Assembly (NCBI GenBank): GCA_964552475.1
Contig: CAZKFZ010000002.1
Span: 70,160-134,159 of the forward strand
DNA: 64,000 nt
Source of the DNA: an uncultured Candidatus Saccharibacteria bacterium
GTDB lineage: Bacteria > Patescibacteriota > Saccharimonadia > CAILAD01 > BJGX01
Direction: 5' to 3'
This document shows positions 3,662 to 52,999 of this stretch, piece after piece. The notes below the pieces were generated by a model. It had not been told where the DNA came from. It searched no databases and was given only the letters and a program-made list of their open reading frames with translations. Made by a program: the position numbers and the translations under genes. The first letter of the stretch is position 1, and each line of letters starts with the position of its first letter.

Positions 3662-4071
3662 AAGCTAACTATAAAACTTAATATGACTGTCATCAAGCAA
3701 ACTATACAGTGGTGATTGGAATGACGACAGTTTTAGCGAGTTTGTCAGAGTTTGTTAGACTTCATTGTAAAATAGTGTTCTGATATTGCAATTGCCGAGC
3801 CTGCTTGATATTCTGAAGTTACGCATAAGCGTTACATTAACAATCTAGCTACACAGTTCCAAGGAGTTAACCGAAGCTCAACATATGAGCGCCCCCGAGG
3901 AATTGGTCATAATCTTATCCCAACGGATACGACAAGAGGTATATTTCACACTGCACCAGCAGTCGTAGGAAACGGCCCAGTTATGATTAATTCTTTAGTG
4001 GTGCTCTTTTATTTGTCTTGAATTGTGCCCAATTGAATTTGTGGTTGGTATAACTACAAAGGAGAAGAGGT

Positions 4072-5403
4072 ATGGATGCTTCAAAGCAGCTCAAGATTGA
4101 GCAAGTTAAAATATCAAAACTAAAAGCAGCAACTTACAACCCGCGCAGCTGGAGTGAGGAGACCAAAAAGCAACTGGCCGATAGCATCAGTCAGTTCGGA
4201 TTGGTAGATCCACTGCTGGTAAACGGTGCCGAGAACCGCAAAAACGTAGTAATTGGTGGGCATTTTAGACTACACATAGCTAAAGAACTCGGGTACAAAG
4301 AAGTACCTGTGGTTTATTTGGATATTCCAGACGAAGCGCGTGAGAAAGAGCTGAACCTTCGTTTAAACAAAGCGCTCGGCGAGTGGAACTGGGAAATGTT
4401 GTCCGAGTTCGACGAAACACTGCTGGCTGATGTTGGCTTTAGTAGTGAAGAGTTGGACACCATCTTCGATATTGAACTTGAGGAGTCGGATACCTTTGAT
4501 CTGCAAAAAGAACTGAAAAAACTGGATATCAAGTCAATTGAAGCCAAAAAAGGCTATGTGTACAAGCTTGGTGATTCAAGGCTAATGATTGGTGACAGTA
4601 CTGTTGATTCTGATTTCGACAAATTAATGGATGGTCAATTGGCTGATATGTGCCTGACGGACCAGCCGTATCGGCTCTCATACACTAAGGGTGGCATCCG
4701 CCAGGGTAAGCCAACTGAGGGCTTTGGTGCTAAGCGCAACCGCAAGTATTTGGAAACTGACGAGTTACCCGAAGACTTTGTCCAGCTCTGGATGGCAAAT
4801 GTTGCCAGGCATGCCAAAGATGATTTCTCTATCATTGCCTATGAAGCGTGGCACAACATGCGTGAAATGTGGGACTGCATGTCCGAGCATTGGACCATCC
4901 GGAATATGCTCATCTGGCACGTACCGAAACGTCATCAAGGTTTTGCTGCCAAGTACAAATTCTTCAGTAAGTACGACATAGCCATGGTTGGCAGCAGCGG
5001 CACCGTGCAGTACAACCACGACGAAGAACCCGATGGCTTACAGGAGGAATATGAAGCTGCACTTTACGCCACAGTCGGTAAGCCGCAATGGGAAGGCTAT
5101 CAGAAAGGCCGCAAGTATCAGCCAAGTGACTTTGTATCGTTTCCTGCAAATGATGAAAAGAGCTCCGGCCAAGGAATAATCTTTGGTACAAAGCCACTTG
5201 AAATCCTAATCCCGTACATAAAAGTACTGACAAGACGTGACGACCTGATAGTTGAGCCCTTCGGCGGGTCAGGATCGACGCTAATTGCAGCTACTATGCT
5301 CAAACGGCGTTGTTTCATCATGGAAAAATCACCAGTTTACGCTGAAGTGATTATGAAACGATGGGAAAATCTTACTGGTCTCAAGCGGGAGAAGCTGTCG
5401 TGA
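4072..5403 (+). CDS. ParB-like nuclease N-terminal domain fused to an N4/N6 DNA methyltransferase (beta-class)
   Basis: N-terminus is ParB/Srx-like (GGHFRL). LTDQPY (motif IV-like, DPPY variant) precedes EPFGGSGSTLIAA (motif I FxGxG), typical of pfam01555 phage/plasmid MTases. SD aaaggagaag upstream. Confidence 0.7.
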   Translation: MDASKQLKIEQVKISKLKAATYNPRSWSEETKKQLADSISQFGLVDPLLVNGAENRKNVVIGGHFRLHIAKELGYKEVPVVYLDIPDEAREKELNLRLNKALGEWNWEMLSEFDETLLADVGFSSEELDTIFDIELEESDTFDLQKELKKLDIKSIEAKKGYVYKLGDSRLMIGDSTVDSDFDKLMDGQLADMCLTDQPYRLSYTKGGIRQGKPTEGFGAKRNRKYLETDELPEDFVQLWMANVARHAKDDFSIIAYEAWHNMREMWDCMSEHWTIRNMLIWHVPKRHQGFAAKYKFFSKYDIAMVGSSGTVQYNHDEEPDGLQEEYEAALYATVGKPQWEGYQKGRKYQPSDFVSFPANDEKSSGQGIIFGTKPLEILIPYIKVLTRRDDLIVEPFGGSGSTLIAATMLKRRCFIMEKSPVYAEVIMKRWENLTGLKREKLS

Positions 5404-5828
5404 GCCGAAATAAGAAAGCAGATAAGAAACAATTGTTAGCGAAGCTCGCGGAAACACCGATTACTGAGGCAGCCTGTAAGAAAGTTGGGCTGCCTCGCTC
5501 AACCTATTACCGCTGGCGGAAAGAAGATCCGGATTTCGCTGAGCAGTGTGATGAAGTTATTGAGCTTAGTGTTGGCCGGATTAATGATCTGGCAGAATCA
5601 CAGCTTATCAACGCCATTAAAAACCAGAACATGTCAGCTATAACATTCTGGCTTAAGCATCATCACCGAAGCTATAGGAATCGACTGGAAGTCGATGCAC
5701 GATTACAACCGGTGCAACAAGAGCTGACACCGGAGCAAACTGAAATGGTAAATAAAGCCCTGCAGCTGGCAGGCATAACAACATTAAACGAGGAGCAAGA
5801 AAATGATGAACGATCAATTAAAGCGTAA
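5400..5828 (+). CDS. Phage terminase small subunit-like HTH protein
   Basis: GLPRSTYYRWRKEDPDF HTH typical of TerS. Probable GTG start at 5400 overlapping the upstream TGA (track ORF begins at 5361). Directly precedes and overlaps TerL. Confidence 0.55.
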   Translation: MSRNKKADKKQLLAKLAETPITEAACKKVGLPRSTYYRWRKEDPDFAEQCDEVIELSVGRINDLAESQLINAIKNQNMSAITFWLKHHHRSYRNRLEVDARLQPVQQELTPEQTEMVNKALQLAGITTLNEEQENDERSIKA

Positions 5829-7311
5829 GTTATTTACCGACAAACTAATCCGGGCAGAGGTAACGGCAAATAGCCACCTATACTTCTTCTCGACCTATTT
5901 TGCTAATTATATGGAGTATGAGATATCTGATCTGCACCGGGAGCTGTTTGCACTCACCGAGCAAGATGAAACACCACTGGCAGTCGTGATGGCGTTTCGT
6001 GGTTCTGCCAAGTCAACGATTATGACTATGAGCTACCCTATTTGGGCGGTAGTTGGTCGGCAGCAAAAGAAATTCGTGGTTATTGCTAGTCAAACACAGT
6101 ATCAGGCGCGGGTTCACTTAACTAACATCAAGCGGGAGCTGGAAAGCAACGAGTTGCTGGCAAACGATCTAGGGCCGTTTGTAGAACAGCGTGAAGAGTG
6201 GGGGTCAACCTCACTCTTCATCCCTAAGTACAACGCCCGTATCACCGCTATATCTACTGAGCAGAGCGTTCGTGGTATCCGTCACGGCTCTAAGCGTCCA
6301 GACCTGATCATTGCTGATGACGTCGAAGATGCACAGTCTGTGAAGACCCGTGAGGGCCGTAACAAGACCTTTGACTGGTATACAGGTGAGATCATCCCCG
6401 CGGGCGATATCAACACAAAAAGAATAGTTGTTGGTAACTTGCTTCACGAAGATTCGCTACTGATGCGTTTAAAGGATTTGATCGAACGTGACGAGATAGA
6501 TGGCTCTTTCATTGAATGGCCAATTGTAAAGCAAGGCAAAAGCACATGGCCGGGTAAATTTCCTGATAAAGCTGTCGTCAAGCGAATGGAGCGCAGTGTT
6601 GCCAGCCGTATCGCATGGGAGCGTGAATACATGCTTAATTTGGTTGCTGACGACGATCAGATTATCGACCGCAAAATGATCCAATACTACGACGAGCTGC
6701 CAACACAACTGCGTGGCCAATATACTCGTATTATCATTGGCGTCGACCTTGCTATATCTGAAAACGATAAAGCTGACTTTACTGCCATTCTAATACTGGA
6801 TATACGTGGCTCTGGCGACAGACAGCGGATGTATATAAGGCCAAATATCGTAAACAAGCGGCTGTCATTTCCCGATACGGTTAGCTTGCTTAAGGAGACT
6901 AGCGACAACTTTCGATACCCGAAGCTTTACATCGAACAGACAGCCTATCAAGCGGCAGTGGTACAACAACTCACTGCTGATGGGCTTGATGTGCAAGGTG
7001 TGACGCCGCACTCCGACAAGCGTTCACGACTTAATATGGTAGCTGACAAAATTCAACGTGGTGTCATCCTGTTTCCGCGTATGGGCGCAGAGGAACTAAT
7101 TACACAGTTGATTGGGTTTGGTGTAGAGAAACATGACGACCTAGTAGATGCCTTAACGACTGCTGTTCTTGAGTTTATACGTGATGATCGCCGTGGAGGC
7201 ACAGTAACAATAGGCAGAGCCTCGGATATTTTTGGTGATAGGTATCCTGGATCAAACCGTCGCAGAAGTGGCCGTGATTATTGGAATCGACGGTTAGATG
7301 ATTGGGATTAG
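5803..7311 (+). CDS. Phage terminase large subunit
   Basis: Walker A-like RGSAKST and Walker B IIADDVED in the N-terminal ATPase. C-terminal RNase-H-like nuclease (IGVDLAISEND...D). 502 aa. Confidence 0.8.
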   Translation: MMNDQLKRKLFTDKLIRAEVTANSHLYFFSTYFANYMEYEISDLHRELFALTEQDETPLAVVMAFRGSAKSTIMTMSYPIWAVVGRQQKKFVVIASQTQYQARVHLTNIKRELESNELLANDLGPFVEQREEWGSTSLFIPKYNARITAISTEQSVRGIRHGSKRPDLIIADDVEDAQSVKTREGRNKTFDWYTGEIIPAGDINTKRIVVGNLLHEDSLLMRLKDLIERDEIDGSFIEWPIVKQGKSTWPGKFPDKAVVKRMERSVASRIAWEREYMLNLVADDDQIIDRKMIQYYDELPTQLRGQYTRIIIGVDLAISENDKADFTAILILDIRGSGDRQRMYIRPNIVNKRLSFPDTVSLLKETSDNFRYPKLYIEQTAYQAAVVQQLTADGLDVQGVTPHSDKRSRLNMVADKIQRGVILFPRMGAEELITQLIGFGVEKHDDLVDALTTAVLEFIRDDRRGGTVTIGRASDIFGDRYPGSNRRRSGRDYWNRRLDDWD

Positions 7312-7338
7312 GCAACTTCTGGCAAGTGGTAGAGCTGT

Positions 7339-8118
7339 CTACTTAGCTTCGGCTTGTTTTAGTTTTACCACTTCGTCGCGGTGGTTCCAGAAAATACAGT
7401 AGTCACAGTCTGGATTTGCATCTGGGATTATATCGGCGTCCAGAGTCTGTTTCAGTTTCAAAATAGTAGGCTCGACCCACTCATCATTGCCGTCGTGTTC
7501 AATCACGTGGATGTCAAAGTTAATGCAGGCATCAAAAGACTCTTCGTTGGGCTTGCCGGTGCAGTAAACCCAGTATGCTTTGTTAGACATTTTGAGGCCG
7601 TTCTTACGTAGAAGCCATTGGTATACCTCCAACTGACGTCGATAACCATTATGATAAGATGCATCGCCTAGTTCTGTTACAGGGTCTGCTTTAGCCGTAG
7701 CCTTGTAGTCAGCAACGATATACTCACCATTACCGCTGATCCATAGGTCGTCGATAGCACCGGTGATAATCAATTTAGTAGGCTCATGTAAATACTGCAC
7801 GCCCTTGAAGTTCTCGCGCCATTCATCAATCATTTCGTGTGGTGCGGGCTTTGCATCTACGCCAAACTGATCAAGTAGAGGATGCGAACCACCGTTTTCT
7901 CGCAATGTATCAAACTCATTTTTTAGCATGGAATCTACAGCTGAGTTCAATGCAAATGGGAACCCAGGTGGACGACCAAGTCCAAGTCGACGATCAATAT
8001 AGAAGCACCGTGGACACTCCATAAATAAGTCTATTTTTGACCGTGAAAGTTTGAAAGGTTTATCGTCGGTAGGCGAGTATATATTTCTTGTTCTTTTGCC
8101 TTTGTAATATTCGCTCAT
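7339..8118 (-). CDS. Cas4-like / RecB-family PD-(D/E)XK nuclease with Cys cluster
   Basis: N-terminal KLSRSKIDLFMECPRCFY, a central D...VADYK core, QLEVYQW (QxxxY) and C-terminal CDYCIFW. Start overlaps the MTase stop by ATGA. Confidence 0.7.
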   Translation of the reverse strand: MSEYYKGKRTRNIYSPTDDKPFKLSRSKIDLFMECPRCFYIDRRLGLGRPPGFPFALNSAVDSMLKNEFDTLRENGGSHPLLDQFGVDAKPAPHEMIDEWRENFKGVQYLHEPTKLIITGAIDDLWISGNGEYIVADYKATAKADPVTELGDASYHNGYRRQLEVYQWLLRKNGLKMSNKAYWVYCTGKPNEESFDACINFDIHVIEHDGNDEWVEPTILKLKQTLDADIIPDANPDCDYCIFWNHRDEVVKLKQAEAK

Positions 8119-11100
8119 TTTGTAGAAGCTTCAATTAGTTGGAGTTCTTTATCGGTCAGATCATAAAGCTTTCCAGCTAGTATATCTATCTTGTCCCATA
8201 GTTCGCCAGCGTCATCAGTACTATTTCCTATTATTCTTTCACCAATATTGATAAGTTCATTCTTAATTTTTCCCCTCTCTGGTGATATTTTAGGTATTCG
8301 AAAAAATGTTTTCACGGAAGAAATAGGAAGCAAATAGTCTTTTTCACCTGGGCTTTTAAGCAGTAGCTCAAACATATATTTATTTATTGCAGAATTCAAT
8401 AGTAGCCAGAGATAAATAACTTCTTTTTTATTTTTGCTAGCAATAATAGCAGCCCGTCCCATTGGAAAAACAATATCTTCATCAGTAAATGAAAAGCATT
8501 TTGGATTTTTGACACTCCATACTATCTTAAATTCCTGCTCAAGAACGACATAGCCCTGACTGTTCTTCGTTAGTTGAATTGCTGCTTTATCCTTAGGGTA
8601 AAAATCTTCTGTTAGGAGAATTACATCCTTCATACCTTTTGAATTAAATAATTTATAGTATTTATTTTCATCGTCGACTGACTTCAATATTTTAGAATTA
8701 TTCAAAGTGAATCCTACATCAAAATAAAAACTTGAACCGAAGTAATTAACACTTTTTGCGTGGTTATAATAAATATCCGCTATCTCAGCAGACATATATT
8801 TCGATAATATACTTTTTTGGGGGCCGCCAAGGGTGTGTATAGACCAGTTGTTGATACTCTTAATAAGTTCTTCTTTATTAACTGGTTGATAATTTATTTT
8901 GTTCAAATGGTCTAATTTACTCTTTGTGAACAGCGCAGTATATTCGCTATTTTTTTCATTTATAACAAAGAGTACAAGACTACTAGTAGGTACAGTGGAG
9001 GTAGCCGTATCCCCCTTAAACACCATATCATCAACTACCAATAATCGATTTAGAGTTTGAGTTTCTGAAACAAGGTATCGAACAACGTCAAGGTCTTTGG
9101 CGGTTAATAGGTTTTGTGGCACGATAAATGATATGCAACCCTTAGGTTTAGCTAAGCGCGTTGCCCTAGCGAAGAAAAATGCATAGAGGTTTGGCTTAGG
9201 TGGGTATGTCTTTCTGCTTATAGGGGTACTATGAAGATTAACTCCGCAATAATTGCCAACTGATTCATCAGAGCTTTTAAGATATTTAGCAAAAGTGTCG
9301 TTTGTCTTTGAAAGTGCATTAATACTTATATAGGGCGGATTAGCAATGACGATATCAAAGCCGCCATTTTCAAATACATCTGGGAAGTTGAGCTGCCATA
9401 TAAAAAAAGGCTTTACCTTCGACATTTTGAATTTCGATAGGCGATCGATTTCTTGATGCTGATTATTCTCTTTTAGTGTTTCTTCAATTAGTTCCCATTC
9501 AGTGTCATTTATTTTTGATTGTATCTTTCTTTTTACTATTTTGTCAGTACACGCAAAATAATCCTTATGAAGTTGAATCAATAAAGTACGAGTTTTTTCA
9601 GATTTACTAAATTTATCAAAGAGGCCTTGATTGTTATTTGGTACATTCTGCCTACCTTTCAGTTGGATTAACTGCTTATTAATTGACTTTAGCTGTGACT
9701 GGAGTTGATTCTGTTTGATTGGGGTCAACATGTTAGTAGAATGTAAACTCAGATACTCTCGCTGTAAATCTGCCTGCCTTAAAACTAAATTGCTCGTTGC
9801 TTCTACATCGAAATTATGGTCGCCATAAATAAGCTCATCATCGAAGAGTTTAATTTTTCCGTACTTCTCAATTAGACTGTTGCCCTGCATAATCTTAAAA
9901 TCCAAATTAGGCAAAGGTCTAATGCCTCTATTCTTTGCGTTATCATCAATCTCTTCATCAACAATCAGAGTCAAAAAACAACGCAATCTAGAAATCTCAG
10001 TGGCAATAGGTTGTATATCAACCCCAAAAATGGATTTATTTATTATTCCAAGCTTTCGAATGTAGTTAGCACTCTTGTTATCAAATTCTCTTTTTAACTC
10101 CAGGCTCGTAATACTTTGAAGTTGCTTATTCAACCACCATTTTGCGTCAGGATCCAGTATCGATATTATGTGCAAGATTTTCTGAAGCATTCCAATCGGG
10201 AACGCCCCAGAACCACAAGCTGGATCAATGACAGTTAGTTCGCTGAGGGCACCAAGCACTAACTCCACTTCCTCTTCATTTAGTTTATTGCCAATATCGT
10301 CTTCTAAGTCATAACTTACTAACGCACTAAGTTTGCTTTCAGGGACAATTGTCATTGCTGATAAAAACTCAATTAAACTATTGCTTACCATATAGTCGAC
10401 AATTTCTCTTGGAGTATAAAAACTCCCTGTACTTTTTCTTACGGTTTCACCTGTTTCAGGATTGATTCTTGCAAGAAGATTTTCAAAAACCCGCCCTAGC
10501 ATTTCAGGATCAATCGATAGCTCAGTATCTATACTAGTATTTTCGTCTACAGTAAAATTGTATCTCTCAAGAAGATCAAATAAATCCAATAACCACTTGT
10601 CTGTGATTGTTTTTGGTGAGCTATCGTCTCCATAATAATCAATTATGTCATCGCTAAAAAGGCCCCCATTTAAGTAAGGTATTAAGTCATATGGTGCTTG
10701 CTTAAATTTAGATAGCCTAGCATCCATTTCCTTATTTAGGACCTCAAAGAACAATGGTTCCAATACGCTTTTAAAATATTCTGGCTTCCTCGAGGCTTCT
10801 AATGATAGAACCGCATTTGGAATTAATGGTATGCCTTTAATGCTCCTCTTTTCCCGTAAAAACCAACAAAATATAATTCTACCAATTAACCTAACTGCAA
10901 ATTCTTGACAATCTTCGTTGCTACCGGGGTATTTTAATTCTTTTTGAATATTTTTTGCACCAACAAGGCGGTCGTATAATCTTGCAATTTCTTTATAAAA
11001 GGCATTGTTAACAACCTCAAGTGAGAATCTTTCTTGCAGCTCTTCTAGTGTGCTTACAGCACCTTTTGCAATTAGATAATTGAATGGTGTGGCCGTTTTT

Positions 11101-11507
11101 GCTCTTGGGCCTAAAACATAAGAGTAGCGCCTTGGATTTGAGAAAATTTTTTTAATCTTACCTTTAATTTCATCTATGGAAATTGAGATATATGAAAGTC
11201 TCCATTCTTGTTCACCGGTGGTCGACACATAAGCAACTAATGCTTTGTCAATGTTGTTCTCAGCCATTAGCTTGAATGTGTCTGTCGCCAACTTAACACG
11301 CACAGAAACAGTTGCATCGTGCGTAATGACCAATACATTATTAAATCTATTGTCTAAAAAATGACCTATATTGTCAGCTTTTTTAATGAGAGACGAAGAA
11401 TGTTGAATATTTTTAGATTCTGAATATAGCTCAGTTTCAACGAGCCCTGTTACAAGTTGCTTAAATGTCTGTAAATTGAATTCCTTTGATAGATCATCTC
11501 TATTCAT
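8115..11507 (-). CDS. Large gamma-class N6-adenine DNA methyltransferase (Eco57I / type IIG / BREX-PglX-like), 1130 aa
   Basis: FYTPREIVDYMV, motif I DPACGSGAFP, motif IV VIANPPYI. Long N-terminal region and a ~400-aa C-terminal putative TRD. No obvious PD-ExK nuclease motif in the N-terminus. Confidence 0.8.
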   Translation of the reverse strand: MNRDDLSKEFNLQTFKQLVTGLVETELYSESKNIQHSSSLIKKADNIGHFLDNRFNNVLVITHDATVSVRVKLATDTFKLMAENNIDKALVAYVSTTGEQEWRLSYISISIDEIKGKIKKIFSNPRRYSYVLGPRAKTATPFNYLIAKGAVSTLEELQERFSLEVVNNAFYKEIARLYDRLVGAKNIQKELKYPGSNEDCQEFAVRLIGRIIFCWFLREKRSIKGIPLIPNAVLSLEASRKPEYFKSVLEPLFFEVLNKEMDARLSKFKQAPYDLIPYLNGGLFSDDIIDYYGDDSSPKTITDKWLLDLFDLLERYNFTVDENTSIDTELSIDPEMLGRVFENLLARINPETGETVRKSTGSFYTPREIVDYMVSNSLIEFLSAMTIVPESKLSALVSYDLEDDIGNKLNEEEVELVLGALSELTVIDPACGSGAFPIGMLQKILHIISILDPDAKWWLNKQLQSITSLELKREFDNKSANYIRKLGIINKSIFGVDIQPIATEISRLRCFLTLIVDEEIDDNAKNRGIRPLPNLDFKIMQGNSLIEKYGKIKLFDDELIYGDHNFDVEATSNLVLRQADLQREYLSLHSTNMLTPIKQNQLQSQLKSINKQLIQLKGRQNVPNNNQGLFDKFSKSEKTRTLLIQLHKDYFACTDKIVKRKIQSKINDTEWELIEETLKENNQHQEIDRLSKFKMSKVKPFFIWQLNFPDVFENGGFDIVIANPPYISINALSKTNDTFAKYLKSSDESVGNYCGVNLHSTPISRKTYPPKPNLYAFFFARATRLAKPKGCISFIVPQNLLTAKDLDVVRYLVSETQTLNRLLVVDDMVFKGDTATSTVPTSSLVLFVINEKNSEYTALFTKSKLDHLNKINYQPVNKEELIKSINNWSIHTLGGPQKSILSKYMSAEIADIYYNHAKSVNYFGSSFYFDVGFTLNNSKILKSVDDENKYYKLFNSKGMKDVILLTEDFYPKDKAAIQLTKNSQGYVVLEQEFKIVWSVKNPKCFSFTDEDIVFPMGRAAIIASKNKKEVIYLWLLLNSAINKYMFELLLKSPGEKDYLLPISSVKTFFRIPKISPERGKIKNELINIGERIIGNSTDDAGELWDKIDILAGKLYDLTDKELQLIEASTK

Positions 11508-11512
11508 AGCGC

Positions 11513-14500
11513 CTATTTAAGCTCCTCGGTAAGTATGAGCATACTAGACTGGTTTCTTGACGCATCGGCTGCACGTCGAATTTTAGCTATATATTGAATT
11601 GGTATACGTTCGCTAAGGTGCTTGTATGCCTCATCTGGGGCATCACCTATAACAATATTCCTTATTAACTTTAGCTCTGAGTCTGCGAGTGCGTCTAGGT
11701 CGTAAATGGATTCAATTAAATCCTGACAATAATTTTTCTGACTTGAACTTTCTAGTTTTTCGGAAAGAATCTTCAATTTTGCAATTGCTTCTTGACGACC
11801 TTTATCTGGGACTGATTTGTGAGTATTTGTTTTGTATAAATGATCTCGAACTTCTTGGAATAATTTATGGTAATTTTCTGATACTTCCTGTCCCTGCAGA
11901 TTTTTATCCGCTTCAAACAATTCCAGCGCTAATTCAGTGTTAATATACTCAGTTTCTTCTGAACCAACTTGCTTCAGGCAAAAGACACTTGTCTCACCAC
12001 GTTTACCATAGAGAACAACACCCTTTGTTGCATTATTACTCTTTCTTCCCACCTTAGATTTATTGACTGCTTCTTGCTCTACTAAATCTAGAATTTCTTT
12101 ATTGTGTTTGAGAGAGTTCCAAAGGTTGCGGAATTTATTAATTGAACTTTCTGATTCTTCCTGCGACTTCGCGTCGTTAAATTTATCCGAGTAGTAGGCT
12201 TTCAGCTCTTCCTCGCTCGTGAGCTTTTTAGTGTCATCACCCAATAGAGCATTAAAGATGTGTACCTTTATAGTAGATATGGATTTGGTATGTGTTTCTT
12301 CTTCACCGATTTCACTCGGGAAGAAGTTGTAAATGAATAGTTCTTCATAAACCTTTTTATTTACACGATTGATTCGCCCAATACGCTGGATCACTCGAGT
12401 CGGGTTATAGGGGATGTCGTAGTTATATACGCAATCTGCTCTGTGTAAGTTATATCCTTCTGAAATTGCGTCAGTAGCAAGTAAAATTTGAAATTGATCT
12501 TCTTGCTCATCCACTGGCAGACCGGCGTCAAAGTTTTTGGCAATAATCTTTTTGGTAGATTGATTAGCTTCTTGTCCTGAATAGGTAATTATCTTGTCTT
12601 TTAGTTCAGGATCTTTTTTGAGTTGATCTGCAATGTAATAAATTGTGTCGGTAAACTCACTGAAGACGATAACCTTACCATCAGTAGTTTTCATTTTACT
12701 TTTCAAATGTTCAACAAAAGTATCGAGCTTAGGATCGACTTCTTTTGTGCTTTCATCCTCAAACCAAAGTTTCTGTATTTGTCTTAGGATTTCTCCGTCC
12801 TTGCGTAATAGTTCTATGTAGTCAGGTTGTAAATATTTAGCCTTAATAATTCGGAAATCTTTAGAATTATTTTCCGAAAGTTGTTTTTGTAACTCTTCTA
12901 TTGGGTCGGTTTCAGACAGATTTTCATCGATTTCGATTTCATCCATCAGATCATCAGGTTCAGGTATATCAAGTTTTTTGGAAATTGGCACTCCGCCAAC
13001 TTTCTCATACCAATTGATCACTAATTGGTTCGAGATGATCATTTTATTTAGAGTGCTCCTGAAAGCATTCTTTGAGCTTTCAAATCTTCTAACCAGTAGG
13101 TGGCGCATGAACTTAGAAACGTTCGATTGACCCTGCTCAAGTCTTTGAGCAATGTCATCTTCGTCATCAAATTCTTTGGCTAGTTCCTTTTTGTAGTCTT
13201 CACGACCCTCATCAGTAAAGTACTTGGTCGGCTGGTATCGAGCAGCCAGGTAATGCTCGCCCGGAACAGCTTGATCAGATTCTGGGTAGATTGTATATAA
13301 AGTATTTTTGTAAAGATCAGTTATTTCCTGCAAAGGATATTCGATGTTGGCAGGCTCGTTAACTTTGGGAAAATGAATACCCTGAGTTTTTAAGTCTTCT
13401 CGGTACTCATCAATTCTCTCGAGATCCAATCGAGAACGTCTTATTACTGCGTCTTCAATCAAGCGGCGCAGTTCTTTAGCAAGTGCCTCAGCCTTTTGCT
13501 TGATCTTTTCAGAATCCGATTTTTTATCTTTTCGCAGTTTTGAATATTCACGAATTAGTTCACGGAATGCCATACCTAGATTTTCAGCGGTTTTTAACGT
13601 TGCGGCGCCAGGAATTTGGAAGAGCTTGATTAAGGCGTATACGTCTTTTGGGTCATTATTAAATGGGGTAGCTGAAAGTAGCAATACCTTATGACCAATT
13701 GCTAATTGGTGAATATCGGTATAATCATATGTCAATTCGTTTCTAAACCTATGAGCTTCATCGATTACAATTAATTTCGGTCGCTTGTCTTCTTTATAAT
13801 ATTGGAAACATTCATTAATTTTGCCCCGACTCCAGACTTTCCCAGTAAATCCAAATTTGTCCATGTACTCCTGCCATTGGTCGCATAAATGAGGAGGTGC
13901 AATTATAACTGTGTAAAGGTCATCACGTTTGTATAAGTTATATGCAATAGTTGAGCCGATAATAGATTTGCCTAAACCAACAACATCAGCAACAATCGCG
14001 CCGTTGTAGTCGTCAATTTTTGCTATGCCTTCCTTGATGGCGTCGATTTGATATTTAAGATTACTGTATAAGCCTCCGGTTATCTTGTAGGGCATATGGA
14101 CATCGCTGTCTTCTAAGTCGCCAAAATATTCACGAAGAACCTTAATATATACGTGATAAGGGCTAGGTAATTTATATGGCCAAGTTGATTTCTTGAATCT
14201 ATCAACAATTTCTGGAGCATCGGACCTGTCAATTAAGGTGACAGCTCTTCCGTCGTTCCATTCTTTCTCAAAAGTATCGCTCCACTCTTTAATGTAACTT
14301 GGTTCAGTAAACATATGGTTCTTTTCACCCTGTTTGCGTAATCCGCTAGTTGTCAGGTTGCTTGAACCCATGATTACTAAGCCGTTAGGGAATAAAGAGC
14401 CTATGTCTGTGTCTTTCTTGAGTCTAAATACATAATATTTAGAATGCTCTTCTTCAGATGACATTTTTATTTCTAGAGTGCCGTTTTTAAGTTTTTCGAA

Positions 14501-14866
14501 TAAGATGTCCAGAGTTTCACTGCTAGCAACCTCATCAAAATCCCTTAGGCTATTAATGCTAGCGATTGAAGTTTCAATAAAGTTATCAATTTTTTCTGAT
14601 CTGGTGGCACTTGCATAGCTACCAATTTTTGATTTGAAGCTAGTCCCGTCCTGATAGTTTTTGCCAAGTTCACTTATAACCTTAGGATCCAACTCCATAC
14701 CAACAAGAATTCTAATGGGTATGTCTTTTATGAGATCCTTAATTTCTTCGAATCCGCTAAAGAAGAAATACCCAACGGCGATGTCGATTGATTCACAGTG
14801 TGGAGCAATCTTTGCGATCTCATCAGCCAAAATTCGACTATGGTTGTCGATAATCCCACTTTGCAT
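11513..14866 (-). CDS. PLD-family nuclease domain fused to an SNF2-family helicase, 1117 aa
   Basis: N-terminal HKD motif HSKYYVF...IMGSSNLTTSGL. Helicase motifs I DVVGLGKS, II LIVIDEAHRFRN, III LLSATP, and the helicase-C block LATDAISEGYNLH...QRIGRINR. First gene of the operon, followed 5 nt later by the MTase. Confidence 0.8.
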   Translation of the reverse strand: MQSGIIDNHSRILADEIAKIAPHCESIDIAVGYFFFSGFEEIKDLIKDIPIRILVGMELDPKVISELGKNYQDGTSFKSKIGSYASATRSEKIDNFIETSIASINSLRDFDEVASSETLDILFEKLKNGTLEIKMSSEEEHSKYYVFRLKKDTDIGSLFPNGLVIMGSSNLTTSGLRKQGEKNHMFTEPSYIKEWSDTFEKEWNDGRAVTLIDRSDAPEIVDRFKKSTWPYKLPSPYHVYIKVLREYFGDLEDSDVHMPYKITGGLYSNLKYQIDAIKEGIAKIDDYNGAIVADVVGLGKSIIGSTIAYNLYKRDDLYTVIIAPPHLCDQWQEYMDKFGFTGKVWSRGKINECFQYYKEDKRPKLIVIDEAHRFRNELTYDYTDIHQLAIGHKVLLLSATPFNNDPKDVYALIKLFQIPGAATLKTAENLGMAFRELIREYSKLRKDKKSDSEKIKQKAEALAKELRRLIEDAVIRRSRLDLERIDEYREDLKTQGIHFPKVNEPANIEYPLQEITDLYKNTLYTIYPESDQAVPGEHYLAARYQPTKYFTDEGREDYKKELAKEFDDEDDIAQRLEQGQSNVSKFMRHLLVRRFESSKNAFRSTLNKMIISNQLVINWYEKVGGVPISKKLDIPEPDDLMDEIEIDENLSETDPIEELQKQLSENNSKDFRIIKAKYLQPDYIELLRKDGEILRQIQKLWFEDESTKEVDPKLDTFVEHLKSKMKTTDGKVIVFSEFTDTIYYIADQLKKDPELKDKIITYSGQEANQSTKKIIAKNFDAGLPVDEQEDQFQILLATDAISEGYNLHRADCVYNYDIPYNPTRVIQRIGRINRVNKKVYEELFIYNFFPSEIGEEETHTKSISTIKVHIFNALLGDDTKKLTSEEELKAYYSDKFNDAKSQEESESSINKFRNLWNSLKHNKEILDLVEQEAVNKSKVGRKSNNATKGVVLYGKRGETSVFCLKQVGSEETEYINTELALELFEADKNLQGQEVSENYHKLFQEVRDHLYKTNTHKSVPDKGRQEAIAKLKILSEKLESSSQKNYCQDLIESIYDLDALADSELKLIRNIVIGDAPDEAYKHLSERIPIQYIAKIRRAADASRNQSSMLILTEELK

Positions 14867-15002
14867 TTTTATTTTACAACTCCATACATAATTATCTATT
14901 CTACGCTAATTACATCTGTCATTCCATAGCTACACAATGTTTTATTTAATTTCATAATATTCCTAGCTTTTAACTAGGTTTGGCGGTACCTTGTTGCTTG
15001 CA

Positions 15003-16265
15003 ATGGAGCAAGTAACAGACATAAAATACTGCCTTTATGCTCGGAAATCGAGCGAACAAGACGAACGTCAGGCCATGTCGATAGATTCACAGCTAAAGGA
15101 GATGTTGGCGCTTGCTGCCCGTGACGGTTTGAATATAGTCGAGACCAAGCATGAAAGCCATTCAGCCAAAGAATCGGGGCGTCGGCCTGTATTTAACGAG
15201 CTGTTGGAAGATTTGAGGGCTAATAAATTCAACGGTGTACTTACATGGGCACCAGACAGGCTATCACGTAACGCTGGCGACCTAGGATCGTTAGTTGATC
15301 TAATGGACAATAATAAGCTGCAACAGATCCGCACATTCGGACAGAGCTTTCGCAATACGCCAAACGAAAAATTCTTACTAATGATTCTGTGCTCACAAGC
15401 GAAGTTAGAAAATGATAATAGAGGGGTTAATGTTAAGCGAGGTATTCGCGCCAAGTGCGAAACTGGCTGGCGACCTTGCATGCCTCCGTTAGGCTACTTT
15501 ACTAGGGGAGCAAGCGGTAAAGGTAAAGACGTTATAATTGACCAAGAGCGAGCACCTTACATCGTCCAGATGTTTGAAATGTCCGCCGAAGGCAAAGGCG
15601 GCAGACACATTCGACAGTGGTTGGAAGATAATAATGTCAAAACACGTGGCAATAAATCTATACCGTTAAGTATGATTTACCGGATATTAGGGAGTTCTTT
15701 CTACTACGGTGAGTTCGAATACCCCAGGAAAAGTGGGAAGTGGTATAAGGGTCAACACGAGCCACTTATAACCAAAGAGTTGTTTGACCAGGTGCAGATT
15801 CAGCTAACAGTACCAGTAAAGACCAAATGGGGCTCGATTCCATTCCCTTATAAGCAGTTCTTGAAATGCTACAGCTGTGGATCCAGCATTGTTGGTGAGC
15901 AGAAAACTCGGCATTATAAAAATGGCAATACGCCAACATTCACCTATTACCACTGCTCAAGACAGGTAAAGCGAGACTGCAAAGAACCATTTGCCCGCGA
16001 GCAAGACATTGCAGATGAACTAAGCTTAATGTGCAACGAATTAATTACCGACCTAACACTGCTTGAGCCAGGATTGCGCGACGCAATAGATAAGTTTACT
16101 AAGATGATGAAAGTTACTCACGAAACCTATAGCCCAGATGAAATGGTGGGCGGTTATATCAAATATGTGCTACGCGAAGGCACACTTTTCGAGAAAACTA
16201 GATTAATCCGGAACCTGAATATTAAGCTCGCATTACATGATCGCAAACTTGTAAAAATTGACTAG
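15003..16265 (+). CDS. Large serine recombinase (resolvase/integrase family)
   Basis: YARKSSEQ with the catalytic Ser near the N-terminus. C-terminal zinc-ribbon cysteines (CYSCGSS...YYHCS). The track starts at TTG 14991; ATG 15003 is more likely. Confidence 0.8.
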   Translation: MEQVTDIKYCLYARKSSEQDERQAMSIDSQLKEMLALAARDGLNIVETKHESHSAKESGRRPVFNELLEDLRANKFNGVLTWAPDRLSRNAGDLGSLVDLMDNNKLQQIRTFGQSFRNTPNEKFLLMILCSQAKLENDNRGVNVKRGIRAKCETGWRPCMPPLGYFTRGASGKGKDVIIDQERAPYIVQMFEMSAEGKGGRHIRQWLEDNNVKTRGNKSIPLSMIYRILGSSFYYGEFEYPRKSGKWYKGQHEPLITKELFDQVQIQLTVPVKTKWGSIPFPYKQFLKCYSCGSSIVGEQKTRHYKNGNTPTFTYYHCSRQVKRDCKEPFAREQDIADELSLMCNELITDLTLLEPGLRDAIDKFTKMMKVTHETYSPDEMVGGYIKYVLREGTLFEKTRLIRNLNIKLALHDRKLVKID

Positions 16266-16302
16266 TAGCTTAAAAGCTTGTGCTTGTTGCTATAATGAGG
16301 CT

Positions 16303-16743
16303 ATGAAACGCCAAACGCTGTCACGCTACGACCAAATTACCGTTGATCCTCGACACGGCGGTTACAGTGATATTAGGCTTTGGCCATGTTATATGGTGTT
16401 TAGTAGCTTAATCTTGTTTCTAGCTCCGCAGATCGGTATGTTCCTCTCAATAATGCTTGTAGGTGTTCCTTCATTTTTCATCGCTAAGAAAGTAGCGGAT
16501 ATGACGACTTCGGATGAGCCACTTGTCAGATACGACATTGAAAAGTGGGTTGATGACATGATGGCGGCAGAAGACAAAGGGTTACCGTTGCCAGCAATGG
16601 AAGCTTACGCATACATAGAGCCTATTATCGTAAAACAGAAGGTCGCCAAACAACCTGAACCGATAAGTTCTAGACCTGCTTTCAAACAGATAACGATAGC
16701 ATCTAGGATTAGAACCAAAAAACCGACTCTTCAGTCGGTTTAA
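16303..16743 (+). CDS. Hypothetical membrane protein (about 146 aa) between the recombinase and the tRNA
   Basis: ATG with a GAGG SD (track ORF begins earlier, at 16258). Two predicted TM helices. Confidence 0.35.
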   Translation: MKRQTLSRYDQITVDPRHGGYSDIRLWPCYMVFSSLILFLAPQIGMFLSIMLVGVPSFFIAKKVADMTTSDEPLVRYDIEKWVDDMMAAEDKGLPLPAMEAYAYIEPIIVKQKVAKQPEPISSRPAFKQITIASRIRTKKPTLQSV

Positions 16744-16813
16744 TAGTAAATCGATTCAGCTTCTTTATCTTGGTTAAGATTTGCACCGTACGGGTCACGT
16801 TTGGTGAAAATCG

Positions 16814-16888
16814 TGGCTGGGACGGAAGGATTCGAACCTTCGATCTCTTGAGCCAGAATCAAGCGCCTTACCACTTGGCCACGTCCCA
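16814..16888 (-). tRNA. tRNA-Gln (anticodon CTG), CCA encoded
   Basis: Hand-folded cloverleaf TGGGACG TG GCC AAGTGGTAA GGC G CTTGA TTCTGGC TCAAG AGATC GAAGG TTCGAAT CCTTC CGTCCCA G CCA. Track ORF 16740..16922(-) rejected. Confidence 0.8.
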
Positions 16889-16949
16889 TTGTTGTGGATA
16901 TATGTAATATAAGAGCAACCAACAGTCTAGCATTTTTATATATTTTTTT

Positions 16950-18340: not shown

Positions 18341-18387
18341 ATGACTTATTATATTAAAAACCCCTACAAATAAGTAGGGGTTGGGTG

Positions 18388-19434
18388 TTATAGCATTTCG
18401 TAAAGCTCACCTAGCCAAGCGCTGGTCTCTTCAATACCTTTACAGGCATCAGTAATGCTTTGGCCGTATGTAAGCTTAGTTGGATCATCTCCAACCGCAA
18501 ACTTCTGTTTACCAGCCACTAGGTTACATTCAGCCATAATACCAGCCACTCTCGTAAAGCGTCGTGCTGCAACAACCTCGCGACCTACCTCAAACTGTCG
18601 TGTGAAGTCACCGCTACAATTACCATGTGAACAATCTACAATTATGCGCGAGCTCATTCCTGCCTCATCGAGTAATACTTGGGCTTCGTAGAGACTTTGT
18701 ATGTCGTAGTTCGCCCCTTTAGTTGAGCCTCGCATAACAAGACACGTGTCTTGGTTACCAGTAGTAAAGTGTAGTGATTCTTGGCCAACATCATCACTTC
18801 CTACAAAGCACCGTGGCTGTGCCGCTACGATCATCGCGTTGATGGCTGTTGCCACATCGCCAGTTTGGTCGTGCTTAAATGCTACAGGCATAGATAGCCC
18901 CGTTGCGAGCTTACGGTGTGGTGGGCTTAGTGCAGTACGAGCACCAATACAACCAAGGCTCACTAAGTCGGCAAACTTGTGAGTCAGCTGATTATCTAGA
19001 AACTCGGTCATTACGGGCAAGCCAAGGGTGGCGACATCCAACATTAGCTTACGGGCCATTATTAGACCATCATTCATAGCGAATGTCCCGTCCATATGTG
19101 GGTCGTAGACTAATCCATCCCAATCATCACCGGTGCGTGGCTTTTCACAGTATACACCAGCAACAATAAGCATCTTTTCTTGGTACTTTTTGGCCATTTC
19201 GGCTAGCCATACAAAGTATTCCGTAGCTGCATCGATATCATGAATAGAACATGGTCGTGGGGCCACAAGTAGACGAGCCTGGCGGCGACCAAATATTACA
19301 TTGGCAATTGCCGCCCTTTGTGTAACTATCTGGTTGCGCAAAATATTCGATACAGGTAGCATAGCCTTGAGCTCACCGGCACTAACTATTTGCTCTGTAC
19401 GAACTATTCGAGTGTTTTCACTTACAATCTGCAC
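18388..19434 (-). CDS. aroG: 3-deoxy-7-phosphoheptulonate (DAHP) synthase, class I (AroG/F/H type)
   Basis: PRPCSIHD and EKPRTGDDWDGLVYDP motifs. Likely GTG start at 19434 with an AGAGGAG SD (track start TTG 19461 lies in a T-run). Confidence 0.8.
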   Translation of the reverse strand: MQIVSENTRIVRTEQIVSAGELKAMLPVSNILRNQIVTQRAAIANVIFGRRQARLLVAPRPCSIHDIDAATEYFVWLAEMAKKYQEKMLIVAGVYCEKPRTGDDWDGLVYDPHMDGTFAMNDGLIMARKLMLDVATLGLPVMTEFLDNQLTHKFADLVSLGCIGARTALSPPHRKLATGLSMPVAFKHDQTGDVATAINAMIVAAQPRCFVGSDDVGQESLHFTTGNQDTCLVMRGSTKGANYDIQSLYEAQVLLDEAGMSSRIIVDCSHGNCSGDFTRQFEVGREVVAARRFTRVAGIMAECNLVAGKQKFAVGDDPTKLTYGQSITDACKGIEETSAWLGELYEML

Positions 19435-19457
19435 TGAGTCTCCTCTATTTGGTAGGT

Positions 19458-19486
19458 ACAAAAAAATCCCGGTGCTTCCGGGATTT
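19458..19486 (-). terminator. Intrinsic terminator hairpin (atcccgg/ccgggat + T7) immediately upstream of the aroG RBS; candidate attenuator
   Basis: Minus-strand reading gaaatcccggaagcaccgggattttttt, then 20 nt to AGAGGAG-GTG. Confidence 0.55.
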
Positions 19487-19513
19487 CATGAATAAACAAA
19501 ACTTTCCTAGAAG

Positions 19514-19573
19514 CTAGGCAATATCTCCCTCAAAGAAATAAAAGTTTGGTTTGTTCATAACGAATATCAGCAT
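19514..19573 (-). promoter_or_regulatory. Candidate leader peptide MLIFVMNKPNFYFFEGDIA (19 aa; 4 Phe + 1 Tyr) upstream of the DAHP synthase terminator
   Basis: Minus-strand ATG...TAG read directly from the sequence. There is no clear SD. Confidence 0.3.
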
Positions 19574-19619
19574 AACAAAAAAGACCTGGTGATGCAAGTC
19601 TTTTTTGATTTTTTCAATA

Positions 19620-20045
19620 TTAGATGTCGGTGTCTAAGTCTTCAATACCTTCGCGAGCCTTTGCCTTAATGTCTTCGGCAGTTGTGTCGGGTTCTAGCGT
19701 ATCTGATTGCGAAGATTTATTGTCGTTGTCATCGCTAGTTGTAGTATGAGCAACTTCAGGGTTTTCTTTTGCTGTTTTGGTGTGCTCCGAACCTTCGGGC
19801 TCTGCAATTTTAAGATTGTATCGAGCGTCATCTTTGGCCCCCAAAACACGTAATAATGTTCTAATAGATTTGGCGGTTGCACCACCTTTACCAATAATCT
19901 TACCCATATCGCTTGGGTCCACACTAAGCTCTAGTAGTACGCCCCTGTCATCTACTGTTCTGGTAATCTCAACCTTGTCTGGGTTATCAACCAACGCTTT
20001 TACTACATATTCAACAAATACCTGATCTTTTTCACTTGTAGCCAT
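19620..20045 (-). CDS. KH-domain RNA-binding protein (KhpA/YlqC-like) with an acidic C-terminal extension
   Basis: GKIIGKGGATAKSIR KH GXXG loop. SD aggagaaactctatcATG. Sits next to rpsP as in many bacteria. Confidence 0.65.
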   Translation of the reverse strand: MATSEKDQVFVEYVVKALVDNPDKVEITRTVDDRGVLLELSVDPSDMGKIIGKGGATAKSIRTLLRVLGAKDDARYNLKIAEPEGSEHTKTAKENPEVAHTTTSDDNDNKSSQSDTLEPDTTAEDIKAKAREGIEDLDTDI

Positions 20046-20160: not shown

Positions 20161-20688
20161 TTATTTACTTTTGTCGGCTTCTTTAGCTGTAGTTTCTTCA
20201 ACAGCTTTGGCTGTTTCTTCGGTAGCTTTAGCTTCTTTAGCTTTGTCTTTTTCTTCAGCTATTGTACCTACGTCAGTTTTTTGATCTTTGGTTTTTTCTT
20301 CGGCATTTGTAGCTTCGCTAGTAGCGACCTCGGCAGTTTTAGCTTCACCTTCTGTTGTTGCCTCTTGATCACCTCCATCTACTACTGCTTCTGGTGTAGC
20401 TTCGGCTTCTTTTTTGGGTTTTTTATTGCGATCATGAGTCTTAGCCCAAGCTGGCAAGTCAACGCCTTGAGATTTTAGAATTCTCAAGACTCTATCTGAT
20501 GCTTGGGCGCCATTGCTTAAATATTGAGCGATTTCTTCTTTTTTGAGAGCTACTTCTTTAGTGTGAGGATTGTAGGTTCCAAGAATTGCCAAAAACTTAC
20601 TGGTGGCGGCACGACGTTTGTCGGCAGCTACAATACGATATGTGGGATATTTATGACGGCCATGTCTGGCTAAACGAATTACAACCAT
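20161..20688 (-). CDS. rpsP: 30S ribosomal protein S16 with a long charged C-terminal tail
   Basis: MVVIRLARHGRHKYPTYRIVAADKRRA is the canonical S16 N-terminus. Confidence 0.85.
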   Translation of the reverse strand: MVVIRLARHGRHKYPTYRIVAADKRRAATSKFLAILGTYNPHTKEVALKKEEIAQYLSNGAQASDRVLRILKSQGVDLPAWAKTHDRNKKPKKEAEATPEAVVDGGDQEATTEGEAKTAEVATSEATNAEEKTKDQKTDVGTIAEEKDKAKEAKATEETAKAVEETTAKEADKSK

Positions 20689-52945: not shown

Positions 52946-52999
52946 GCAGATAATTATAGCAGATTAACAGGTTGAGAGCTAATTTCTAATCTTCTAGTT

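Follow-up and report, generated by a model that had tools for sequence, protein, structure and literature searches.

A putative Phe/Tyr leader-peptide attenuator upstream of a DAHP synthase gene on a strain-specific cassette in a Candidatus Saccharibacteria genome

We analyzed a stretch of 64,000 nucleotides (nt) from contig CAZKFZ010000002.1 of an uncultured Candidatus Saccharibacteria bacterium; further in this study the whole stretch is referred to as the window. The region of interest lies on the minus strand between a gene for a KhpA-like KH-domain protein and aroG, a gene for class I-alpha 3-deoxy-D-arabinoheptulosonate 7-phosphate (DAHP) synthase. The KH gene ends with the stop codon TAA at 19622-19620, and a leader open reading frame (ORF), a terminator (T2) and aroG all follow downstream on the same strand (Table 1). 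A preliminary description of this region had proposed that it is an attenuator responding to aromatic amino acids. The analysis presented here supports this proposal, among other things by the rarity of the Phe-Tyr-Phe-Phe (FYFF) run in the leader, the position of T2 on the obligatory path into aroG, and an antiterminator that in silico depends on ribosome stalling.

Table 1. Features of the KH-trmD interval and its surroundings (positions in the window; aa, amino acids; SD, Shine-Dalgarno sequence; MFE, minimum free energy)
Feature	Position	Strand	Details
KhpA-like KH-domain protein gene	19620..20045	-	141 aa; PF13083 KH_KhpA-B, E 2.3e-22; closes the conserved smc-rpsP-KH block
T1, terminator hairpin of the KH gene	19575..19606	-	A6-GACUUG-CAUCAC-CAGGUC-U6 (AAAAAAGACTTG-CATCAC-CAGGTCTTTTTT); -11.5 kcal/mol
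Candidate leader promoter	19569..19597	-	TTGCAT, 17-nt spacer, extended -10 TGtTATGCT; own enumeration
Leader ORF	19514..19573	-	ATG 19573 to TAG 19516-19514; 19 codons; translation MLIFVMNKPNFYFFEGDIA
Segment 1:2 domain	19486..19560	-	leader codons 19560..19541 paired with 19504..19486; MFE and centroid structures; about -16 kcal/mol
Regulatory codons UUU UAU UUC UUU (Phe-Tyr-Phe-Phe)	19532..19543	-	sequence reading
Candidate antiterminator 2:3	19474..19514	-	19514..19496 paired with 19489..19474; -11.6 kcal/mol
T2, putative attenuator terminator	19460..19487	-	GAAATCCCGG-AAGCA-CCGGGATTT (RNA GAAAUCCCGG-AAGCA-CCGGGAUUU) and 7 T/U; -12.9 to -14.3 kcal/mol (ViennaRNA)
SD AGAGGAG of the DAHP synthase gene	19440..19446	-	13 nt past the T run of T2
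Class I-alpha DAHP synthase gene (aroG)	18388..19434	-	348 aa, GTG start; TIGR00034, PF00793
T3, terminator after the DAHP synthase gene	18359..18382	-	AACCCCUAC-UUAUUU-GUAGGGGUU and U run; -15.4 kcal/mol
TATAAT box	18348..18353	-	7 nt before trmD ATG 18340; putative leaderless-type trmD promoter, from the 3' end of the cassette
Whole cassette (T1, leader, T2, aroG, T3, trmD -10 box)	18341..19619	-	1279 bp, flanked by the KH stop codon and the trmD ATG

The small minus-strand ORF given in the preliminary description, with its FYFF cluster and five Phe or Tyr residues out of 19, was reproduced exactly, base for base, in both coordinates and letters. A second in-frame ATG at 19558 would yield the shorter product MNKPNFYFFEGDIA, so that the ORF comprises 14-19 codons depending on the start. 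The small palindrome described after the ORF is present as CCTAGCTTCTAGG at 19518..19506 and shares bases with the final sense codon and with the stop codon. Four consecutive Phe or Tyr residues are encoded by a single member of the set of 624 small ATG ORFs in the window (8-45 codons, both strands), which is the leader ORF itself, and an ORF with such a run arises in 0.3% of 20,000 shuffles of the 132-nt spacer, which puts the chance of it at 0.2-0.3%. The locus thus has the clustered Phe/Tyr codons upstream of DAHP synthase by which a leader-peptide attenuator is recognized. The leader is neither repeated nor mobile, as BLAST against the window and all fetched loci matched only the leader itself.

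The strong hairpin with a run of seven T immediately before aroG, also listed in the preliminary description, is T2, and its T run is separated from the SD of aroG by 13 nt and from the GTG start at 19434 by 25 nt. The upstream terminator, whose T run directly precedes the leader ATG, proved real as well: T1 is present in every fold, and it is missing from relatives. The hairpin energies of T1 and T2 rely on ViennaRNA. A simple terminator scan listed T3 and the palindrome and did not list T1 and T2, an omission that we ascribe to greedy stem extension running into the T run. No promoter-like site was found between T2 and the SD of aroG, either by the scan or by our own enumeration, and 13 nt are too short for a promoter; therefore all aroG mRNA passes T2. 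Since the KH gene ends in its own terminator, T1, T2 is not simply the KH terminator. These two results rule out both T2 as a plain KH terminator and an aroG promoter between T2 and the SD, and what remains is an intrinsic terminator that stands after the leader ORF and before aroG on the sole transcription path.

Another ORF in the same region, ORF2, occupies 19422-19499 (minus strand) with a TTG start at 19499 and 25 codons (MFIHEIPEAPGFFCTYQIEETQCRL), and is preceded by the SD-like sequence AGGAAAG at 19508-19502. It crosses the T2 hairpin and stops 10 nt inside aroG. ORF2 could act by translation through the terminator or by coupling, but it may be due to chance.

The 191-nt region folds at z = -4.0 relative to dinucleotide shuffles. 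Its MFE fold consists of three units, namely T1, a long imperfect hairpin 19560..19486, and T2. The middle hairpin contains the palindrome CCUAG-CUU-CUAGG and occupies segment 2 as long as no ribosome is stalled. The preliminary description had named mutually exclusive pairings as what should be seen upon folding, and these were found: T2 competes with a hairpin at 19514..19474, in which GCUUCU.GGA...UUUUGU (19514..19496) pairs with AUGAAAUCC.GGAAGC (19489..19474). This candidate antiterminator sequesters nine of the ten nucleotides of the T2 5' arm together with the T2 loop. When the free 31 nt were dinucleotide-shuffled, 1.3% of the sequences gave an equally good antiterminator, as did 2.4% of random natural 31-mers from the window. 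A plain duplex search of the upstream sequence against the T2 arms was not significant; such a search misses bulged hairpins.

As attenuators are kinetic devices, the nascent RNA was folded up to the T2 loop, and the antiterminator then appeared. With no ribosome on the leader, two of the ten T2 5'-arm nucleotides were sequestered, and the same number was obtained with the ribosome at the stop codon. With F11, Y12 or F13 in the A site the number rose to 9/10, and at F14 it was 6/10. Hence, the model yields the terminator without a ribosome, the antiterminator upon a stall at Phe-Tyr-Phe, and again the terminator when the ribosome is at the stop codon. Among 1500 dinucleotide-shuffled leaders, 0.4% showed this three-state behaviour in its strict form and 1.9% in a relaxed form. 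Because the antiterminator 5' strand has its first base within the stop codon, a terminating ribosome blocks this strand and one stalled at FYFF does not. Since the strand is otherwise held by the hairpin formed by the palindrome and the leader codons, the arrangement has the classical 1:2 / 2:3 / 3:4 topology, which is that of the attenuation model for pheL and trpL. The thermodynamic model thus contains an antiterminator that depends on the stall and excludes the terminator.

These pairings suggest the following course of events. The transcript would start between the KH stop codon and the leader, from a promoter that presumably overlaps T1, or would arise by read-through of T1, and would carry the 14-19-codon ORF with the Phe-Tyr-Phe-Phe run. 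When Phe and Tyr are plentiful, the ribosome would reach the UAG at 19516-19514 and cover the antiterminator 5' strand, or would leave the transcript at the UAG and let segment 2 re-pair with the leader codons. In either case T2 would form, and transcription would end 13 nt before the SD of aroG. A stall on the FYFF codons (19543..19532) would open the 1:2 hairpin and leave 19514..19496 free to pair with 19489..19474 as the latter emerges; the T2 5' arm would be tied up and the polymerase would enter aroG. Without translation, T2 would be formed by default. Expression of DAHP synthase would thereby be coupled to the supply of charged tRNA-Phe and tRNA-Tyr.

The gene following T2 had been named class I DAHP synthase in the preliminary description. 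The assignment holds in TIGR00034 (aroFGH; 324 bits with the cutoff of 173) and PF00793, and the SD AGAGGAG and the GTG start stand as described. The start at 19434 is the same as in the public gene call of an identical protein (P0001). The closest solved structure is E. coli AroF (6agm, E 1.4e-74). In a search of 5.8 billion proteins the nearest homologue had 45-47% identity, and the matches came from a mixture of Proteobacteria, Cyanobacteria and others. Residues C62, H270, E302 and D329 and the motif K98-P-R-T, that is, the metal ligands and the KPRT motif, are retained in columns invariant with 22 homologues. By profile score, metal ligands and KPRT, the sequence is that of a class I-alpha DAHP synthase.

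The interval containing aroG is absent from close relatives. Five contigs of close relatives keep the gene order smc-S16-KH-trmD-SfLAP, have no DAHP synthase, and carry a KH-trmD spacer of 169 bp (e.g. L002:6427-6595 and L005:5832-6000); compared with them, the window interval breaks off precisely at the KH stop codon on one side and at the trmD ATG on the other. The flanks are well conserved: the KH proteins of the relatives are 82-91% identical to that of the window over the full length (91% in L002-L004; L006 is a 74-residue fragment with 66%), and the TrmD proteins, 91-92%. Neighbouring spacers are 84% and 94% identical to those of the window, and the KH-trmD spacer, 45%, which is the random level. 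No part of the 1279-bp cassette is homologous to the 169 bp found at this place in the relatives. Among 80 trmD loci, about a dozen of them from Saccharibacteria, none had a DAHP synthase gene next to KH or trmD. No relative of the cassette was found in genome contigs searched with the enzyme, or in viral contigs searched by protein and by the exact T2 sequence. The only other copies, retrieved by exact-protein look-up, are two short Logan contigs (L001 and L007), both exact substrings of the window. This strain is present in the sequencing runs SRR16481183 and SRR16481184. The guanine-cytosine (GC) content of the DAHP synthase gene is 47%, while that of the window is 40%. Since the spacer of the relatives is unrelated, the enzyme is divergent and the GC content differs, the unit T1-leader-T2-aroG-T3 with a new trmD -10 box is a strain-specific, horizontally acquired cassette, and the switch may have been imported together with the gene.

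The remaining context agrees with the origin of the contig. The closest TrmD loci in a species-level genome collection belong to uncultured Candidatus Saccharibacteria (59-74% identity), and the window contains ORFs typical of this group, including leuS, alaS, obg, Mur ligase, enolase, mnmA, RNase III, nusB, smc and S16. Long charged low-complexity tails are found at the C-termini of the S16 protein (20161-20688, minus strand, 175 aa) and of the KH protein (141 aa), in which the Pfam domain matches cover only residues 8-64 and 10-80, respectively. The 169-bp spacer of the relatives (L002:6435-6545) contains a 10-bp inverted repeat, AATTCTCGTT ... AACGAGAATC, with the copies about 90 nt apart and an energy of -25 to -28 kcal/mol. 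At 4000-16900 the window also holds a mobile/defence island that adjoins tRNA-Gln (16814-16888) and ends with a serine recombinase. Its cargo comprises a ParB-N6/N4 methylase fusion, a helix-turn-helix protein, a terminase large subunit, a PD-(D/E)XK nuclease, a 1130-aa Eco57I-type methylase and a 1117-aa PLD-SNF2 helicase; the GC content reaches 46-47% at 4-8 kb. The cargo of relatives at the island site differs (Abi_C, HsdM/S and a recombinase in L002).

We surveyed 71 metagenomic or genomic loci encoding homologues of the window enzyme for small sense-strand ORFs with at least five aromatic residues in seven. In six loci (about 8%; L105, L109, L115, L116, L151 and L169) an aromatic-rich leader ORF precedes a strong terminator, which lies 32-103 nt ahead of the start of the DAHP synthase (DAHPS) gene, and the antisense control gave one match. 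Peptides encoded in these loci include MNNRGYWFYAYFTFPWR and MSTFAAAYFAYFTWPIAGQAAA, and the motifs include YWFYAYF, YFAYFTW, YFYGYWF, FGYYFYF and FRYAYWY. Six such loci out of 71 indicate that the architecture is a recurrent solution, and the six leaders have the look of aromatic attenuators that had gone unannotated at DAHP synthase genes. They share with the window element the dense aromatic run and the strong terminator before the DAHPS gene. L109 in addition shows the same three-state switch in the ribosome-mask model (0/10, 10/10 and 0/10 for no ribosome, stall and stop, respectively); the pattern in L151 is less clean than that in L109. Unlike the window element, the six are GC-rich, include Trp (e.g. 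YWFYAYFTFPW), and form far stronger helices, with terminators of -19 to -25 kcal/mol. Their enzymes are about 40-46% identical to that of the window, and their leaders have no detectable sequence similarity to the window leader.

The leader and terminator of one of these loci (L115:1196-1315) score 65.6 bits (E 2e-11) with the Rfam family RF00627, the Pseudomonas small RNA (sRNA) P15, which is below the gathering threshold of 70. As the match begins exactly with the aromatic codons, P15 may itself be a leader transcript, subject to attenuation, of a DAHPS gene and not a free-standing sRNA; a literature search on P15 as an attenuator found nothing. While L115 nearly matches P15, the window leader does not, there being no match to RF00627 in the window region at E up to 10. 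A weak match of L151 to BjrC68 (26.7 bits) was also noted. Two other GC-rich contigs, L168 (807-979) and L170 (1349-1500), carry a chorismate mutase gene (CM_1) followed by DAHPS, with a common structured spacer that contains a conserved small ORF (MDALRLSPVAAVYVSGP... in one and VDPIRLFAIARVYIFEPS in the other). This spacer may be a different leader element.

An attenuator of the same kind is on record in Corynebacterium glutamicum. PMC11802643 (summarizing Neshat 2014) and PMC7356990 describe the leader peptide aroR, with Phe-Tyr-Phe, upstream of aroF, and a rise in aroF expression when ribosomes stall at the aromatic codons of aroR under Phe limitation. In E. coli, transcriptional regulators bind upstream of the DAHPS genes and repress them (PMC11802643). 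The window element resembles aroR-aroF in having a Phe-Tyr-Phe-type leader directly upstream of a DAHP synthase gene, that is, in the enzyme and, as predicted, in the sensed amino acids and the logic. It differs in belonging to Candidatus Saccharibacteria rather than Actinobacteria, in being AT-rich with much weaker helices, and in residing on a strain-specific acquired cassette. With the enterobacterial pheL-pheA and trpL-trp systems it shares the clustered regulatory codons, a stop codon bordering on segment 2, an antiterminator weaker than the terminator (kinetic control), and a terminator shortly before the structural gene. In contrast to these systems, it precedes DAHP synthase and not pheA or trp, its leader has no SD and is possibly initiated in a leaderless-type manner, and it matches no Rfam leader family.

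We consider it moderately probable that the element is, or recently was, a working Phe/Tyr leader-peptide transcription attenuator of DAHP synthase. The most serious alternative is that T1 and T2 are constitutive, partly leaky insulators of a foreign gene, while the FYFF ORF and the hairpin are due to chance or are a decayed relic from the donor; aroG would then be expressed at a low level and without regulation by read-through, or not at all. This we regard as unlikely, though it has to be reckoned with. It agrees with a cassette that is foreign and unique, and it draws further support from most of the observations that weigh against a functional attenuator, which are as follows.

The first of them concern expression of the leader. 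As stated in the preliminary description, the leader ORF has no SD, which holds for ATG 19573 and ATG 19558 alike. The best promoter candidate matches 7/12 consensus positions in addition to the extended -10 TG, and it was not flagged by the scan tool. A transcript from it would start near 19562, 3-4 nt before the AUG at 19558, and would be almost leaderless. At the same time, an SD-like motif is missing from 27 of the 48 window genes, and several genes have a TATAAT-like box 6-7 nt before the ATG, among them trmD (18341-18353), alaS (52946-52960) and the gene at 425 (400-424). This suggests that leaderless mRNAs are widespread in this Saccharibacterium. As SD-less and leaderless-type genes are common in the window, the missing SD of the leader is softened as an objection, but not removed. 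The promoter, the translation of the leader, the kinetic competition and any physiological response are inferred.

The second group concerns RNA structure. When the complete transcript was folded with a 28-nt ribosome footprint masked codon by codon, T2 was the MFE structure at every ribosome position. The antiterminator, with several G-U pairs, a bulge and an internal loop, is weak and less stable than T2, and no antiterminator wins at equilibrium. Consequently, the switch would work solely under kinetic, co-transcriptional control. In the classical trp attenuator the antiterminator is likewise thermodynamically weaker than the terminator.

On the comparative side, the cassette with its leader is confined, in the collections searched, to this genome and the two Logan contigs. 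At gathering thresholds Rfam detected only two tRNAs in the whole window. At E up to 10, the segment 19380-19680 matched only STnc390, RatA and His_leader (about 18 bits each), with no Phe_leader or T-box match. His_leader, the best match to a leader family, reached 18 bits with the gathering threshold of 49, and these sub-threshold matches look terminator-driven. A T-box, a riboswitch, known leader families and a type I toxin-antitoxin RNA were rejected on the Rfam scores.

Metabolic context is another point. No gene of the shikimate or aromatic pathway is among the approximately 45 other ORFs of the 64 kb. Saccharibacteria generally have no amino-acid biosynthesis and are believed to rely on their hosts; a literature search on the shikimate pathway in Saccharibacteria retrieved nothing relevant. 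The regulatory logic may have been inherited from the donor and may no longer be meaningful in this host.

Finally, the enzyme itself is unusual. Of 96 positions invariant among 22 homologues, it has departed from the common residue at 21, while each of the homologues deviates at 0-3 such positions; this would be expected under relaxed selection. Met-Arg before EKPRT is changed to Ala-Gly, and other conserved motifs are altered as well (GWKG to DWDG and ESQ to LSP). The changed Arg is equivalent to Arg92 of E. coli AroG, which contacts phosphoenolpyruvate in the E. coli structure; a literature search on DAHPS Arg92 found nothing that would confirm this contact. Fast evolution, an altered function or decay of the enzyme may lie behind these changes, and its divergence could mean that the switch is a relic.

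What speaks against insulators with a chance or relic leader is the low joint probability of the two features, as p is about 0.003 for the FYFF ORF and about 0.004-0.02 for the ribosome-dependent switch. Both lie directly upstream of a gene of the one class where sensing of Phe and Tyr makes sense, and the geometry is right, with segment 2 bordered by the stop codon. The ORF and the SD are intact, and the enzyme keeps every catalytic metal ligand. The relic version of this explanation and a working attenuator are inseparable by sequence alone.

It is also conceivable, though very unlikely in our estimate, that the switch is real and is set by something else than a ribosome stalled at FYFF, namely an RNA-binding protein, a small ligand, or translation of ORF2 through T2. 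The alternative structures do exist, and ORF2 has an SD-like sequence situated in the palindrome and middle hairpin, so that access to it would depend on the upstream structure. Translation of ORF2 would physically keep the T2 hairpin from forming, as in the pyrBI leader. Against this explanation, TTG starts are rare, an open frame of 25 codons is unremarkable by chance, and the Phe-Phe of ORF2 is merely the T run of T2 read in frame; neither a riboswitch, T-box or other Rfam match nor any pointer to a specific protein factor was found. It is scarcely probable that a transcript of 110-150 nt ending at T2 is an independent sRNA or small-protein gene unrelated to aroG: the unit between the two terminators is compact and well folded, and a leader of the same architecture comes close to the sRNA family P15, but aroG has no transcription route other than through this unit, the peptide has no homologues, there is no match to a toxin or sRNA family, and L115, the sole near-match to such a family, is itself directly upstream of a DAHPS gene.

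The mechanism of a leader-peptide attenuator is textbook, and for a DAHP synthase gene Corynebacterium already provides a documented case with a Phe-Tyr-Phe leader peptide. To our knowledge, leader-peptide attenuation has not been described in any genome of Saccharibacteria or the Candidate Phyla Radiation (CPR). What is unusual here is the host, a Saccharibacterium with no visible aromatic pathway, and the packing of regulator and gene into a precise 1.3-kb spacer replacement inside a conserved cluster of ribosomal-protein and tRNA-modification genes. Regulatory elements may travel with genes. The cassette comes with terminators of its own and with a putative new promoter in place of the former one of the downstream gene. 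The survey may also be of use for annotation: aromatic leader ORFs accompany about 8% of the sampled class I-alpha DAHPS genes, and one of these leaders nearly matches an Rfam "sRNA" family. A further reading, which we find distinctly unlikely, is that a CPR member acquired a self-contained module consisting of a leaderless Phe/Tyr leader, a working attenuator and a strongly remodelled DAHP synthase, by which charging of tRNA-Phe/Tyr would be tied to a reaction that has ceased to be, or is not solely, the opening step of a full shikimate pathway; if true, the product might be, for example, a shikimate-pathway intermediate completed by or exchanged with the host bacterium. As for the attenuator as such, the cassette may represent a strain-level metabolic gain in an epibiont, and the switch, if functional, would report in a simple and testable way on the status of aromatic amino acids in an organism that has not been cultivated.

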